This document shows positions 30,142-60,700 of a stretch of DNA of 64,000 bases, piece after piece. The notes below the pieces were generated by a model. The model did no database searches, was not told where the DNA came from, and saw only the letters and a list, made by a program, of their open reading frames with translations. Numbering within the stretch: position 1 is the first letter of the stretch; the number at the start of each line of letters is the position of its first letter. Where the stretch lies: NCBI GenBank assembly GCA_036655915.1, contig JAVVPE010000002.1, positions 362-64,361 of the forward strand, read 5' to 3'. The position numbers and the translations under genes were made by a program. The stretch is from Raoultibacter sp. GTDB lineage: Bacteria > Actinomycetota > Coriobacteriia > Coriobacteriales > Eggerthellaceae.

Positions 30142-30278
30142 GTAAAAATAAGTGCGGTTTGCAATGATACCGTGATAAAGACCATCTTGCAAGGAGGACA
30201 ACCGTGCAAAACATAGGGCATCCGCAAATGCGTGGTGAACATCGAGTATTTCAGGGGTTTTTACCCCACCATTCCCGT

Positions 30279-32243
30279 ATGCGGCAGGCATTTTTCTTGT
30301 TTGTGGTGTGTCTGTGCGTAAGCATTGTGGCGCTTGCGGTGCAACCCGGGGCGGCCTATGCCAAAAGTTACGACATGTCGCAGGTGGATATTGCGGCGCA
30401 GGTGAATACGGACGGGTCGCTGCACGTAACCGAACAGCGCACCTTTGAATTCAAAGGTGATTTTACGGCGGTATGGTTTGTGGTCAACCCGCCTTTCGGG
30501 GGCGAACTCAAGGTAAATTCGGTTCAGGTATCCGACCCGGCTTTGGCTGCGGCGGGGCAGGCGGCAGCCCCTGTTGCCCTGAAAGAAACCTCCTTTGACC
30601 TTAAGTGGCGCGATGCGGGCGGCCCTGGTTTTGATAGCTATTCGGTCGATGCGCCCAAAAACACCACCTACGTCTTTTTTAATGTATCGGACGCCTCGCG
30701 CGTTATCACCATCGATTACACCGTCACAAACGCCATCGGCGCCTACAAAGATGTGGGGGAATTGTACTGGCAATATGTGGGCACGGCCTGGGAAGAAGCT
30801 TCCCACAATGTTGCGATGACGGTCAGTTTGCCCGTGCCGGTGAACACGGTGGTAACGCCGGGCGAAAATGTGCGCGCCTGGGGGCACGGACCGCTTGATG
30901 GCAAGATCGCCGTGGGCACCGATGGTGTGCTTTCCTATCAGGTGGCGCAGGTAAATGCGGGGCAGTACGCCGAAGCGCGTGCGGTTTTCCCCGTGGCCTG
31001 GCTGACGAATATCCCAGCGAAAACCAAGGCGCTGCATCAGGACGAAATGCATCTTGATCAGGTGCTTGCAGATGAAAAAAACTGGGCTGACCAGGCAAAT
31101 CAGCAACGCACTACCTCGCTTGTCTTCGTGATTGCCTGCGGCATTATTGCGGTTTTGGTGCTGGTGTGGGCGCTGCTTATGTTTGCGCGTCATGGCAGGG
31201 AACACAAGCCGACCTTTAGCAATCCGTATTGGCGCGATGTGCCTTCGCCCGCGCATCACCCGGCCGAAATGGGCCGGCTGTGGCGCTGGGATAAGGAAAG
31301 CCAGGATGATTTTGTGGCGACGATCATGCATCTGTCGCATGTGGGTGCCCTACAGATCAACCAGGGCAGCTACCAGGTGAAAAAGGCGTTTGGCACCACA
31401 AAAACGGTGGATGATTATTCCCTGACACGCGTGGCTTCTGTGGCCAATGCGCTTCAAAGTCCCCTTGATGTGCAGGCGATGGAGCTGCTGTTTGGCACCA
31501 TTTCAAGCGATGGCGAATCGCTGTGGATGGGGTCGATCAAAGAATACGGCAAAGATAACCCCGAAGCATTTTTGGAAGCCATGAGTGCGTGGCAAGGCGC
31601 GCTTTCCGCGGCTATTATGAAGGATGATTTCTTCGAAGCGAAGGGGCAAAAACTACAGCTTACCATGGCGATTGTGGCGGCAGTTTTGCTGGTGTGCGGC
31701 GTGGGTGCTTTCTTCTTCATGGGCAATTTCCTCCCGCTTATTTTTGCTGCGCCCGTGGCGGTTATCGTGTTTGTGCTATCCAACTTTATGCCACGCAGAA
31801 GCCAAGGCGGTGTCGATCTAAACGCGCGTTGCGAAGCGCTACGCGACTGGTTGAAGGATTTTTCAAGCCTGGATGAACGCCCGCCAACCGATGTGAAAGT
31901 GTGGGGCGAATTCATGGTGTACGCCTATTTGTTTGGCGTTGCCGACCAAGCTATCAAGAATCTTAAAAATACGGTGCCTGAAATTTTTGAAGCCGACGGC
32001 ACCATGGCAAGCAGTGTTACCTATGTGCCCTGGTGGTTCTGGTATAGCCCGGCTTACGGCGCCAGTGGATCGGTCATGCCGGCAGCCAGTGATTTTCTGG
32101 GGTCGGCCATGGAAAGCACGGCCTCCACGGCTGCGGCGGCGCTTTCTGCGGCGCAGGACAACTTCAGCAGCGGCGGCGGCATGGGTGGCGGCTTTTCCAT
32201 GGGCGGCGGTGGTGGTTTCGGCGGCGGCGGCGGCGCCCGGTAA
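30279..32243 (+). CDS. DUF2207-type membrane protein (LemA partner) with a Gly-rich C-terminus
   Basis: Start at ATG 30279 gives signal/anchor MRQAFFLFVVCLCVSIVALAVQPGAAYA. Central TM segments. C-terminus SGGGMGGGFSMGGGGGFGGGGGAR. Its position after lemA is the usual pairing. Confidence 0.8.
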   Translation: MRQAFFLFVVCLCVSIVALAVQPGAAYAKSYDMSQVDIAAQVNTDGSLHVTEQRTFEFKGDFTAVWFVVNPPFGGELKVNSVQVSDPALAAAGQAAAPVALKETSFDLKWRDAGGPGFDSYSVDAPKNTTYVFFNVSDASRVITIDYTVTNAIGAYKDVGELYWQYVGTAWEEASHNVAMTVSLPVPVNTVVTPGENVRAWGHGPLDGKIAVGTDGVLSYQVAQVNAGQYAEARAVFPVAWLTNIPAKTKALHQDEMHLDQVLADEKNWADQANQQRTTSLVFVIACGIIAVLVLVWALLMFARHGREHKPTFSNPYWRDVPSPAHHPAEMGRLWRWDKESQDDFVATIMHLSHVGALQINQGSYQVKKAFGTTKTVDDYSLTRVASVANALQSPLDVQAMELLFGTISSDGESLWMGSIKEYGKDNPEAFLEAMSAWQGALSAAIMKDDFFEAKGQKLQLTMAIVAAVLLVCGVGAFFFMGNFLPLIFAAPVAVIVFVLSNFMPRRSQGGVDLNARCEALRDWLKDFSSLDERPPTDVKVWGEFMVYAYLFGVADQAIKNLKNTVPEIFEADGTMASSVTYVPWWFWYSPAYGASGSVMPAASDFLGSAMESTASTAAAALSAAQDNFSSGGGMGGGFSMGGGGGFGGGGGAR

Positions 32244-32244
32244 C

Positions 32245-32392
32245 CAACCTGACGGCGGGCTGTGGCGGCCAGCTAGGCGTTCAAGCCTTTCGCGGCTTTC
32301 GTGCGCGTACGTGAGTACGCTTACTTCAAGCAGCTCGGTCTTTCACGCCTATCTGACTCACCACAGACCGCCTGTCGTTGCCGTTGTTGCTT
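32245..32392 (+). repeat. Copy A of a ~148-nt structured intergenic repeat
   Basis: Starts CAACCTGACGGCG two nt after the DUF2207 stop. Shares the core TTCAAGCC..TTTCGTGCGCGTAC..GAGTACGCTTACTTCAAGC..GTCTTTCACGC with copies B and C. Confidence 0.85.
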
Positions 32393-32540
32393 CAACCTGA
32401 CGGCGCGCCCTGGTGGGCATATAACCGTTCAAGCCTCTCGTTGCTTTCGTGCGCGTACAGGGAGTACGCTTACTTCAAGCTCCTCGGTCTTTCACGCTTA
32501 TCTGCTCCGCCAGGACGTGCCTGCCTCTGTCATCGTTGCT
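32393..32540 (+). repeat. Copy B of the ~148-nt structured repeat (tandem to A)
   Basis: Starts with the same CAACCTGACGGCG. Nearly identical to copy C at 41207. A third CAACCTG boundary lies at 32541. Confidence 0.85.
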
Positions 32541-32644
32541 CAACCTGCGGGCGCGCGTGACCGGCGCTGCGCGCGGGCGGGCGGGGGTTGTGTGTTTGTG
32601 CTGCGGTGGGGGGTTTTCGGCGGTGGGGGGCTGCTTTATACTGA

Positions 32645-33580
32645 GTGGCTATGGCTGCGCGGACACACATATTTGCTGAAATTCCCGCATGGGTGTATAA
32701 GGTCATGCTGCTTAGTGCGGCGGCCATCTGGGGTTTAAGCTTTATCACTATGAAGGATGCCGTGGGTATTATGCCTCCGGCTTATCTGATTGGCGTGCGG
32801 TTTTTAGCCACGGGTGTTATTTTGGCGCTTGTGTTTCAAAAGCGGCTGCGCGCCCATTTTAATAAGCAGCATTTGGCGGCGGGCGCTACCTTGGGCGTGT
32901 TTTTGTTTCTGGGTTTTTGGGTGCAAACGATTGGGCTGGCCGATACAACGCCCGGGAAAAACGCGTTTTTAACGGCAACGTATTGCGTGTTAGTGCCCTT
33001 CTTTTTCTGGCTCATTATGCGCAAGCGGCCCAGCGTTTACAACGTAATCGCGGCGGCGCTGTGCATCGGCGGCATTGGTTTGGTGTCGCTGCAAGGGTCG
33101 CTGGCCATAGGGTTCGGCGATTTTATGACGCTGGTTAGCGCCATCTTCTTTGCCATTCACATCGTGTATGTGTCGAAGCTTTCCCAAAAAAACGACATCT
33201 TGGTTATGACGGTGTATCAGTTTTTGGTGGGCGGCGCCTGCGGCATGCTCATGGGCGCAAGCTTTGAAGTGTGGCCGGCGGCTTCGGCGTTCACGCTCGA
33301 TTTTTTCTGGGACATGGCCTACATCGTACTCTTGGCATCCTGTGTGGCGCTGGTGTTCCAAAACGTCGGCTTGGCTCACGTGCCGCCGGCGCAGGGCGCG
33401 CTTTTCCTTAGCCTGGAATCGGTGTTTGGCGTGGCGTTTTCCGTGATGCTTTATGGTGAAGAATTGAGCCTTCAACTCATTTTTGGTTTCCTACTGATTT
33501 TTGTTGCTATAGTGGTCAGCGAAACATTTCCGTTGAAGGAGGTTCCATGGCATCGCAAAAAGGTAACATCATCCTCATAG
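32645..33580 (+). CDS. EamA/DMT family transporter
   Basis: About 10 TM helices and two EamA-like halves. GTG 32645 or ATG 32651 as start. TATACT at 32637-32642 suggests a very short leader or none. Confidence 0.8.
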   Translation: MAMAARTHIFAEIPAWVYKVMLLSAAAIWGLSFITMKDAVGIMPPAYLIGVRFLATGVILALVFQKRLRAHFNKQHLAAGATLGVFLFLGFWVQTIGLADTTPGKNAFLTATYCVLVPFFFWLIMRKRPSVYNVIAAALCIGGIGLVSLQGSLAIGFGDFMTLVSAIFFAIHIVYVSKLSQKNDILVMTVYQFLVGGACGMLMGASFEVWPAASAFTLDFFWDMAYIVLLASCVALVFQNVGLAHVPPAQGALFLSLESVFGVAFSVMLYGEELSLQLIFGFLLIFVAIVVSETFPLKEVPWHRKKVTSSS

Positions 33581-39540: not shown

Positions 39541-39701
39541 CATACAGCTTGGATGATTCCGCTTCGTCACAAGCGCCCGCCTGCCATCTGTGGGGTGGCG
39601 CACATTTCGCCGCAGCCTAGCCCGGGTGATTTAGTGGTGTTTTACAAGAAAAACAGCCGGTGGCTTGTGTCGGGGGCAGCATTTCAGGCACAATAGCGCT
39701 T

Positions 39702-41204
39702 ATGGATGAGAAAAATCGCAACACGCAATCACGTCCCACGCGGCCTCGATTAACCGACCCCGGCTACGGCCGCTCTCGCATCGAGGATACGTCGCGCGGC
39801 GCAAACGCTGAAGACGAACGCTATTCGCGTCGCGCTTCTTCGGCTCAATATGCCCAGCAGCGTCAGCAGCAGAAGAGAAAAAAGCGTACGCGCATCGTGC
39901 TTATTGTCGCAGCGGTGCTGCTTGCGGTGGTGCTGGGTTCGGTTGGTGCCGCCTTCGCCTACTATAATGGCATTTCAAACAACCTGCATGAAGGCCTTTC
40001 TGACGACTTAAAAGATGTGCTGGTAAAATCCGAGATTACAAAAGAGCCGTTTTACATGGTGCTTATGGGCACCGATAAATCGAACGAACGCGAGGCGTCG
40101 GGCGATTTTGGCGAATCTTACCGTTCTGATTCCCTGATGCTGGCTCGCATCGACCCGGTAAGCAAAAAAGTCACGCTGGTTTCCCTGCATCGGGATACCC
40201 TTATTGACATGGGCAAAAACGGCAAGCAAAAGCTCAATGCCGCCTATTCTATCGGTGGGCCGGCCTATACGGTTGAAACGGTTTCCAAGCTGGCAGGCGT
40301 GCCCATTTCCCATTATGCAGAAATCAACTTCAACGGCTTCAAAGATATCGTTGATGCCTTAGGGGGCATCGAGGTCGATGTGCCGATGGAAATTGATGAT
40401 GCGGATGCGGGGGGTCATGTGTCGGCTGGCATGCAGACACTCAATGGTGACCAGGCGCTCATTTTGTGCCGCGCCCGGCATGCCTACGACGAATACGGCG
40501 ATGGCGACGTGTATCGCGCCGCCAACCAACGCCTGGTTATTGGGGCTATTGCGAAGAAGATTCTCAGTGCCGATTTGGCCACTATGGCCAACACCGTTTC
40601 GGCATTTTCCCAGTACATGACCACCGATTTGGAAGTGACTGATGTGGTGGCGCTGGCTCAGGCCTTGCGGGGGCTTGATACGTCCAAAGACATTTATTCC
40701 GCCATGGAACCGACAACTTCAGAATATATCGAAGGTGACGGATGGTATGAATACTGTAATACGGCCGCCTGGCAAGCGATGATGAAGCGTGTCAATGAGG
40801 GTCTGCCGCCCACGACCGAAGATGAAGTGGATACGCTTTCGGGCACAGTGTTGGCCAATACGGGCGACGGCAAGGCGGGTACGGCTTCGCCTGCAGGTGG
40901 ATCAAGTGGGCAAACAGCAGGAGCCAAGAAGACGGGCAGTGTTATTGTGAAAAATGGCAGCGGCGCCGATGGTGTGGCTGCGGCGGCGGCAGCCAAGTTG
41001 ACGCCCCAGGGCTACACCGTCGAAACCGGCAACGCCGACGGCTTTGACTACACGCAGACTATCGTTGTGTACAATTCCAGCCATCAAGCTAACGAAGCCA
41101 AAGAAATCGCCACGGCTTTGGGTATAGGAAAAGCGCAGGTAAACGACGGCAGCTTTGCGTTTACGGGGGATTTTTTGGTTGTGGTCGGCTCCGACTTCCT
41201 GTAG
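39702..41204 (+). CDS. LCP (LytR-CpsA-Psr) family cell-wall glycopolymer transferase with a LytR_C domain
   Basis: Basic cytoplasmic tail and one TM helix. LCP core FYMVLMGTD...RSDSLMLARIDP...SLHRD. C-terminal LytR_C-like VIVKNGSGADGVAA. ATG 39702 is preferred over GTG 39660. Confidence 0.85.
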   Translation: MDEKNRNTQSRPTRPRLTDPGYGRSRIEDTSRGANAEDERYSRRASSAQYAQQRQQQKRKKRTRIVLIVAAVLLAVVLGSVGAAFAYYNGISNNLHEGLSDDLKDVLVKSEITKEPFYMVLMGTDKSNEREASGDFGESYRSDSLMLARIDPVSKKVTLVSLHRDTLIDMGKNGKQKLNAAYSIGGPAYTVETVSKLAGVPISHYAEINFNGFKDIVDALGGIEVDVPMEIDDADAGGHVSAGMQTLNGDQALILCRARHAYDEYGDGDVYRAANQRLVIGAIAKKILSADLATMANTVSAFSQYMTTDLEVTDVVALAQALRGLDTSKDIYSAMEPTTSEYIEGDGWYEYCNTAAWQAMMKRVNEGLPPTTEDEVDTLSGTVLANTGDGKAGTASPAGGSSGQTAGAKKTGSVIVKNGSGADGVAAAAAAKLTPQGYTVETGNADGFDYTQTIVVYNSSHQANEAKEIATALGIGKAQVNDGSFAFTGDFLVVVGSDFL

Positions 41205-41206
41205 TA

Positions 41207-41355
41207 CAACCTGACGGCGCGCCCTGGTGGGCATATAACCGTTCAAGCCTTTCGCGGCTTTCGTGCGCGTACAGGGAGTACGCTTACTTCAAGCAGCTCT
41301 GTCTTTCACGATTATCTGCTCCGCCAGGACGTGCCTGACATTGTCGTTGTTGATT
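41207..41355 (+). repeat. Copy C of the ~148-nt structured repeat
   Basis: Starts CAACCTGACGGCG 3 nt after the LCP stop and ends at a second CAACCTG (41356). Nearly identical to copy B. Confidence 0.85.
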
Positions 41356-60640: not shown

Positions 60641-60700
60641 TTTCACGCCTATCTGACGCAGCACAGACCGCCTGACTTTGTTGTTGTTGAATTCCACCTG
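60641..60700 (+). repeat. Truncated (3'-half) copy D of the structured repeat
   Basis: TTTCACGCCTATCTGACGCAGCACAGACCGCCTGAC resembles the copy A 3' arm (TTTCACGCCTATCTGACTCACCACAGACCGCCTGTC). The 5' half is absent. Confidence 0.7.

Follow-up and report, generated by a model that had tools for sequence, protein, structure and literature searches.

The DNA analysed in this study, referred to as the window, is a stretch of 64,000 nucleotides (nt) from Raoultibacter sp., a member of the Eggerthellaceae in the class Coriobacteriia (assembly GCA_036655915.1, contig JAVVPE010000002.1, positions 362 to 64,361). The element of interest is a tandem pair of 148-nt repeats that separates two genes on the plus strand. 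The upstream gene, present in the list of open reading frames (ORFs) at 30204-32243 (+), encodes a membrane protein with a Gly-rich C-terminus that matched the Pfam families DUF2207 (E 1e-30) and DUF2207_C (E 6e-52). The downstream gene (32645-33580, +), on the same strand as the array, encodes an EamA-family transporter (Pfam EamA, E 1e-32). Most of the 401-nt spacer between them was occupied by the repeats. The first long unit, copy A (32245-32392, +), had A-type arms and a covariance-model score of 175 bits, while copy B (32393-32540, +), which followed it head to tail, had B-type arms, GGCGCGCCCTGGTGG / CCGCCAGGACGTGCC, and scored 158.7 bits. The TAA stop codon of the DUF2207 gene was located 1 nt before copy A, with the stop at -4 relative to the first nucleotide of the unit. 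An earlier note on this DNA had described the pair as a ~148-nt tandem repeat, and Tandem Repeats Finder confirmed this far beyond chance at 32245-32556 (period 148, 2.1 copies, 80% matches).

Three parts made up each long unit: a head, CAACCTGACGG, came first, followed by an imperfect rod of ~60 base pairs (bp) that carries an apical hairpin, and then by a tail rich in T, GTTGTTGATT. In copy A, the head extended from 32245 to 32255, the rod from ~32254 to 32372, the apical hairpin from 32305 to 32320 and the tail from 32373 to 32392, all on the plus strand. The arms that had been paired by eye were exact against the sequence, both in copy A (32254-32265 with 32361-32372, coordinates and letters) and in copy B (32402-32416 with 32507-32521, including two G-U pairs). 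The central hairpin was likewise kept with different loops, GCGTAC-GTGA-GTACGC (32305-32320) in copy A and an AGGGA loop in copy B, and the single-mismatch bulge attributed to both copies corresponded to a conserved 1x1 mismatch at unpaired alignment columns 15 and 126. The rod was far longer than the noted arms, with ~31-37 pairs over nearly the whole unit. A third boundary had been placed at 32541, and a CAACCTG was indeed present there, but it headed a decayed short (S) unit (32541-32590, +) rather than another long one. This remnant retained the CAACCTG head, part of a hairpin, GCGCGTGACCGGCGCT..GCGCGCGG, and an GGGGGTTG tail; the assignment was based on a BLAST match of the S consensus to C2:32914-32937 (32553-32576 of the window), with 96% identity along 24 nt.

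The genome to which the window belongs, G000 (1.61 Mb in 98 contigs, 87% complete), contained many additional copies. A BLAST search with the tandem pair, the check proposed in the earlier note, gave 28 matches, with ~22 full-length units on 17 contigs, and copies were also present in sister species. The covariance model found 22-23 full units in G000 and 24 hits in the sister genome G004. The G000 units were 75-100% identical, and in the aligned copies the head read (Y)YAACCTGACGG and was followed by a long imperfect hairpin, ~6 variable nt and a tail, GTTGTTG(A/C)TT. The unit length of 148 nt is not a multiple of three, and there was no coding signal. Two arm subtypes, A and B, were distinguished, of which the window pair has one each, together with several more divergent copies. 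Further B-type copies were found in G000 (C5:46396, C29, C45, C2:41568) and in G003 and G004.

Most copies were followed by another CAACCTG that usually headed a different, shorter hairpin module. There were six S units and two T units in G000, each downstream of a long unit, with intact S units after long units at C5:36193, C5:46556, C6:8683 and C25, and there were also solo heads. The junction between tail and head formed a small palindrome, GTTGA(a/t)TCAAC. The CAACCTG boundaries, previously considered as possible target-site duplications, turned out to be the conserved 5' heads of successive modules.

Each unit folds as one continuous rod with a single apical hairpin, the base of which is formed by the inverted sequences near the unit ends, CAAC...GTTG and GACGGCGG...CCGCC(T)GTC. 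Pairing was evaluated in two alignments, A2, with 46 distinct copies from five species of the genus, and A4, with 22 sequences from eleven genomes across genera. Compensatory changes occurred at 20 of the 31 pairs in A2 and at 26 of the 37 pairs in A4. In the A2 rod, 96.5% of the cells were paired; these figures were matched by none of 500 column shuffles, and when the partners were shifted by 1-3 columns the pairing fell to 30-45%. The compensatory pairs in both alignments thus bear out the suggestion that co-variation of the arms reflects selection on a structure, and they extend it to a larger set of copies. Several unpaired blocks were also conserved in A4 (CCTGACGG, GTGGCGG, TTCGCAC, CGCTTAGCTC and CACCAC).

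The strand that folds is less easily assigned. The plus strand had been proposed on the basis of the G-U pairs, an argument that is not decisive. G-U pairs outnumbered A-C pairs when counted by cells (53 vs 22), but not when counted by columns (6 vs 7), and the folding energy was lower on the minus strand in 44 of the 46 copies. Since these two signals contradict each other, neither the wobble pairs nor the folding energy was used to assign the strand. The covariance model was itself strand-asymmetric, with copy A scoring 175 bits on the plus strand and 37 bits on the minus strand. Within the genus, it is the orientation of the genes, and not the G-U pairs, that points to the plus strand.

The position of the units relative to genes was unusually strict. 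A census with a strict head pattern gave 55 hits, as compared to 6 in a reversed-sequence control, while a looser pattern was discarded because it offered no gain (228 vs 192 in the control). Heads at gene ends were within -10 to +5 nt of the stop codon of a same-strand frame, open for at least 149 codons, in 21 of 29 cases, against a null expectation of 1.5% (P ~3e-32). In at least eight G000 genes, the TAA or TGA of the head was itself the stop codon of the gene (C5_36043, C7_5306, C25, C28, C16, C4, C18 and C59), and the head supplied the stop in other genera as well (loci L146, L148, L156, L161, L162 and L184). The copies of a second family of the class likewise began at or shortly past stop codons. 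The remaining placements were after the T-tract of a canonical terminator or after the 3' end of a tRNA. The genes upstream of the copies, on 17 contigs, were long housekeeping genes (DUF2207, LCP, groEL, tyrS-like) or a tRNA gene. In this genus all copies were co-oriented with the upstream gene, and nine or more tandem-gene contexts agreed in orientation, which would occur with a probability of ~0.002 if orientation were random. Because the units start 0-10 nt past the stop codon or overlap it, they would lie inside the transcript of the upstream gene, and are probably co-transcribed with it as the first bases of the 3' untranslated region (UTR) or of an intercistronic spacer.

Two individual loci illustrate how the repeat can alter a gene end. 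At L120 (G004:C65, the orthologue of G000 C48:7809), the TAA of the upstream gene was changed to TAT. Provided that G004 keeps the reading frame of G000, the ORF would run into the repeat, and a C-terminal extension encoded by the repeat is possible. At L156 (G112:C1:3375330-3375518), the TAA of the head ended an amidinotransferase-like gene (...GGLSCLSLRF*). The unit at this site, which was also occupied in G062, was a 189-nt long-unit variant with an extra hairpin of ~40 nt at the apical loop.

An exact-pattern scan of 185,579 species genomes found carriers only among metagenome-assembled genomes (MAGs) of this genus, and BLAST found the unit only in its five species. These searches were too insensitive to recover the wider family, so a covariance model, R1, was needed. 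R1 gave hits in 54 of 121 Eggerthellaceae genomes, representing 34 of 64 genera. The scores reached 135 bits, and a genome usually had 1-12 copies; G112 had 8-11 hits. In the second family, it found 20 of 27 genomes, in the form of a ~125-nt class, while the 18 further families of the class that were sampled gave no hits. G112 and G108 also had a shorter class of ~127 nt, with a GTTCCG..CGGAAC hairpin, that scored 35-60 bits with R1; its arms and core could be aligned with those of the 148-nt class. This class can be written as CGACGCTGCGG...CCTCGCTGAC (loci L158-L160 in G112, L164-L168 in G108 and L188 in the second family); in most cases, a separate hairpin of 28 nt, GTTCCGTCGGCTTGCCAGCCGACGGAAC, came before it. 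The 148-nt class differs in having an extra inner segment of ~22 nt, the CAACCTGACGG head in place of CGACGCTGCGG, and no leading 28-nt hairpin.

Some copies were retained at the same site across genera. A sense copy occupied the groES-groEL spacer in four genera, and a copy in the X-transketolase (X-tkt) spacer was present in both G112 and G108, with compensatory differences in the arms. In a phylogenetic tree, the sense groES-groEL copies and the X-tkt copies clustered by site across genera, the latter with support of 100/99. The copy in the groES-groEL spacer of G112 was antisense and came from another lineage. In G000, this spacer was ~45 nt long and had no element; the G000 copy followed groEL instead. 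The region upstream of groES in G000 had a canonical CIRCE operator (TTAGCACTC-N9-GAGTGCTAG) at C5:44300-44327.

Turnover within the genus was followed by mapping the 300 nt upstream of 22 G000 sites onto four sister genomes and comparing the regions. All genomes of the genus are MAGs in fragmented form, with breaks at the repeat (380 contigs in G004). The flanks in G000 and G004 were 92-98% identical at the compared sites, and yet the two genomes had A-type vs B-type arms at the same site in three cases (sites 06, 15 and 18) and a full unit vs a solo head of 15-17 nt in two others (sites 02 and 12). The difference at site 12 was a precise 141-nt insertion or deletion. In three outgroup species, the gene at site 12 was ~10 codons longer and was followed by a spacer of ~150 nt, while in G000 and G004 the element replaced the ancestral gene end and the spacer and abutted the stop codon of the convergent gene. 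Site 13 had a solo B head and a truncated A unit. The end of the LCP gene carried a species-specific unit variant in G001 and only a solo head in G004, and at site 17 solo heads with their own arm type were found in more distant species. Site 09 was empty in G001 (GGGTAA|ATTGTCG). No duplicated bases were found around the G000 insert at this one clean empty site, and a TA target-site duplication was therefore considered unsupported. The 5' junctions were imprecise: the head at site 03 was missing its first five bases, and sites 03 and 17 differed in the position of the junction. In the tree, the B copies of G000 grouped with those of G003, which indicates that the A and B subtypes predate the species.

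Many contigs of G000 and G004 ended in or near the repeat (in G000, C58:148, C82:31-55, C89:1-67, C5:46396-46543, C29:21562-21710 and C36:15197-15345). The repeat family is a main cause of assembly breaks in these MAGs, and joins across copies are not trustworthy. The differing downstream neighbours in G000 and G004 were not taken as a sign of rearrangement, since MAG contigs break or may be mis-joined at these points.

Rfam (release 15) gave no match to the unit at E<=10 when 31900-32900 of the window was scanned, and no match at E<=1 for 12 loci of the 148-nt and ~125-nt classes from three families or groups of genomes, in agreement with the earlier statement that no known RNA family was recognised. 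A search of the literature on such repeats in Eggerthellaceae or Coriobacteriia found none. The element was consequently compared with repeats described in other bacteria. The BOX elements of Streptococcus pneumoniae have the order boxA-(boxB)n-boxC. Like BOX, the present array is a modular, gene-adjacent composite in which the inner modules vary in tandem number; both have a strong predicted RNA structure and no known transposase; unlike BOX, it has other modules in another order, a heptamer head is common to all of them, and the first abuts a stop codon. The MIRU of Mycobacterium are said to be direct repeats of 46-101 bp with small ORFs for translational coupling. They resemble the present element in being actinobacterial, intergenic, tandem and co-oriented within operons, with ends that overlap the upstream stop codon, but the 148-nt unit is a long hairpin, is not a multiple of three and lacks a coding signal.

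The ERIC or IRU sequences of Enterobacteriaceae are reportedly imperfect palindromes of ~127 bp. The similarities to this class are a size of 125-150 nt, within the 100-150 nt of an ERIC-like imperfect intergenic palindrome, a single long hairpin, location in transcribed intergenic regions and inside operons, conservation throughout the family with copy numbers that differ greatly between genera, occurrence in either orientation, and no transposase of its own found. The differences are a presumably unrelated sequence in another phylum, a head on or next to the stop codon that can supply the stop, co-orientation of all copies in the genus with the upstream gene, a modular order of a long unit followed by S or T units, and no evident TA duplication. 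Many E. coli REPs are reported to lie no more than 15 nt from a stop codon and to affect translation termination. The REP, BIME and REPIN sequences also share with the present element an extragenic location mostly downstream of genes, a hairpin maintained by compensatory changes, mosaic clusters and within-genome families with master-like sequences (PMC3116915, PMC3733652). Unlike these, the unit forms a single uninterrupted rod of 60 bp, in which internal loops are conserved, rather than two REPs of 20-40 nt, it lacks the GTAG/CGTC tag architecture with 8-9-bp stems, and it has no linked or co-occurring RAYT.

The existence of the family, the rod into which its units fold, their place at gene ends and their turnover are all shown by the data, and they lead us to regard the pair as probably belonging to a new family of non-coding, non-autonomous interspersed palindromic repeats of Coriobacteriia, of the same kind as ERIC, REP, BIME, BOX and MITE. 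Two of the identities originally put forward, a REP/MITE-like element and a 3'-UTR element, both fit this interpretation. The unit would most likely be a gene-end stem-loop within the upstream transcript, where its role could be to protect the 3' end, to process the transcript, to end transcription in part of the cases, or to stall ribosomes as they terminate. Most Eggerthellaceae have kept a few copies at fixed sites over long periods. In this genus, the family has expanded to about 22-24 copies in 1.6 Mb, with exchange of subtypes at the same site, deletion to solo heads and tandem duplication. This turnover may have proceeded by recombination between the head and core sequences that the copies have in common, or by repair templated on them.

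Several observations weigh against this interpretation or parts of it, 1) the argument for co-transcription and for any function of the RNA is a positional one, 2) a simple scan of 31900-32900 found no canonical terminator in the unit, and the copies within the groES-groEL operon cannot act as full terminators, 3) three of the seven 148-nt copies in G112 and G108 were antisense to the flanking genes, so that a sequence-specific, sense-only RNA role fails family-wide, 4) the conserved unpaired blocks and the retention over genus-level divergence resemble an element selected by the host rather than junk, 5) downstream neighbours are unreliable in these short-read MAGs, with possible mis-assembly, and 6) neither a transposase nor a clear terminal inverted repeat combined with a target-site duplication was found, and the 5' junctions of sites 03 and 17 were imprecise, so that true transposition may not be involved and the expansion could have arisen from recombination alone.

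The fourth point raises the possibility that the element is a host-selected, cis-acting RNA module first and a repeat only second. Such a module could set the 3' ends of mRNAs, the stability of operon segments (groES vs groEL) or translation termination, its internal loops being recognised by a protein. The orthologous groES-groEL and X-tkt copies that were kept across genera with compensatory changes are what would be expected of it, as are the conserved unpaired blocks, the strongly strand-asymmetric model and the low copy number (1-12) in most genomes. We nevertheless consider this explanation unlikely, although it deserves to be kept in view, because both orientations occur in G112 and G108, the groES-groEL spacer included, the same spacer in G000 has no element, about half of the genomes of the family have none at all, and the rapid gain, loss and swapping of types in this genus are those of selfish repeats. 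Its RNA role would, moreover, again have to be deduced from position.

A related proposal, which we regard as doubtful, is that the repeat is an ancient 'gene-end module' that Coriobacteriia kept for a role in the termination of translation or transcription. The module would supply stop codons and a rod whose conserved loops are bound by a putative host factor, and it would spread to new gene ends without a transposase when a break at a head-like sequence beside a stop codon is repaired from another copy. If this were true, the head would be both landing pad and repeat boundary, and the process would represent a new, repair-driven propagation of a structured non-coding element that reshapes gene ends.

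Mobilisation by a specific enzyme is improbable. The unit would then be the relic of a single-stranded DNA transposon or a recombination site (REPIN/RAYT, an IS200/IS605 derivative, an Ssn target or an attC-like site), with the head as the cleavage or crossover core. The head was found at both ends of many copies, solo heads and tandem units exist, the tail-head junction is palindromic, and long hairpins are typical of systems that act on single-stranded DNA; yet the 'second head' usually belonged to a different, short module, and the 5' junctions were imprecise. The search for partner enzymes was also unfavourable. Y1_Tnp and the element co-occurred in 24 of 121 genomes, where 23.7 were expected by chance, and PF01797 (Y1) was not found in G000 (87% complete), G003, G112, G108 (the last two both complete), G043 or G044; the genomes rich in copies were without it. 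The genus had two Y1 hits, an IS200 TnpA and a RAYT-like gene, neither near a 148-nt unit, and a RAYT/IS200 partner was rejected because both are unrelated to the unit and there is no phyletic association. The search for a dedicated transposase, which found none, covered only the Y1 and GIY-YIG families.

Membership in the individual systems was considered as well. GTAG/CGTC REPs are palindromes of 20-40 bp that carry a terminal GTAG or CGTC tetranucleotide and have a stem of 8-9 bp and a loop of 4-5 nt, and Di Nocera 2013 (PMC3733652) reported no GTAG REPs from Actinobacteria. Although the rod has GACG...C(T)GTC at its base, the length of 148 nt and the architecture differ from this description; no repeated sub-unit of 20-40 nt in the REPIN layout was present in the continuous rod of 31-37 pairs, and membership was rejected. 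Ssn repeats are hairpins of 20-50 nt with the pattern HGTCWYN(0-2)YYVSBRHN(0-5)WNVSBRGN(0-2)RNCYNB that flank a small, single-domain GIY-YIG gene, ssnA (PMC11893778). The SRM pattern had no match on either strand of window 32201-32660 (6 matches in the whole G000 genome), and no long, S, T or GTAG modules were found around the small GIY-YIG gene of G000 (C6:38344-38559) in C6:36801-40100. The Ssn/GIY-YIG system was rejected because the gene is present without flanking repeats and the pattern is absent from the unit. An integron attC site, suggested by the likeness of GTTGAAT / ATTCAAC to R'/R'' boxes, was dropped because the genes that precede the copies are long housekeeping genes, spread over many contigs, and not cassettes in arrays.

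The Y1 genes and a second repeat of the genus are of interest in their own right. L143 (G004:C140:3776-4006) is an ordinary, AT-rich IS200-type TnpA (MEYKSNNNIVYSCKYHVVWCPKYRRR...) that is cut by the contig end and absent from G000. L144 (G001:C74:1-506) is the RAYT-like Y1 gene, on a low-GC contig of 506 nt, and its coding sequence contains two near-copies of a GTAG REP-like repeat in opposite orientations; it may be a REP/RAYT pair of the GTAG family, or binning contamination. The coexistence of such a gene and a GTAG repeat in the genus lends the enzymatic explanation some plausibility, but the repeat that this gene carries is not the 148-nt unit. G000 also had a second, unrelated repeat, GTAGGGGCGGATTC(C/T)ATATCCGCCCG, with a GTAG tag and a hairpin with an 8-bp stem that has the look of a classic REP. 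Its 11 copies were all outside the window (C26, C28, C29:21710-21736, C33, C39:529-555, C59, C76, C82 and C94), and three of them came directly after an CAACCTGACG head at a stop codon.

The remaining candidate of the earlier note, a family of independently transcribed small-RNA genes of ~150 nt, has a stable covarying structure and a defined strand in its favour but is highly improbable, since the units start 0-10 nt past or overlapping the upstream stop codon and leave no room for a promoter, no promoter-like site was found on the plus strand in a scan of 31900-32900, tandem and truncated copies and solo heads occur, and copies in other genera are antisense.

Eggerthella lenta and Collinsella, which are common in the human gut and of medical interest, belong to the Coriobacteriia. 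Neither Rfam 15 nor the searchable literature describes the interspersed repeats of this class. The element described here is well supported as a structure, with dozens of compensatory pairs, occurs in at least two bacterial families and obeys an unusually strict rule of position at stop codons. It offers a concrete system in which to ask why palindromic repeats gather at stop codons, a question that has been open since the bias of the E. coli REPs was noticed. The family also explains recurrent break points in short-read assemblies of these gut genomes and could provide markers for strain typing, since close genomes differ at many sites. Annotators should be aware that several genes in these genomes end in codons derived from the repeat.

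The window contained two further copies, and the spacing between copies along it was 9 and 19 kb. The third full long unit, which is B-type, was located by the BLAST copy search at 41207-41355 (+), 2 nt past the TAG stop codon of an LCP (LytR_cpsA_psr) gene (39660-41204), and its 3' end was 13 nt short of the stop codon of a convergent gene. A remnant of the 3' half of a long unit, TTTCACGCCTATCTGAC..CACAGACCGCCTGACTTTGTTGTTGTTGAATT, was found at 60641-60693 (+), with 88% BLAST identity to unit positions 97-145; a CCACCTG that resembles the head came after it, along with a short hairpin. Elsewhere in G000, divergent tandem copies (L021, C23:18324-18577) came after a conserved segment ending in ...GCGAGCACCCACCTTTTAAGGTGGGTTCATCCTG. 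This segment gave no match at Rfam gathering thresholds and had no long ORF, and it was 80-98% identical in all five species (G000 and the G001-G004 orthologues); it may be an unannotated RNA gene or a terminator.

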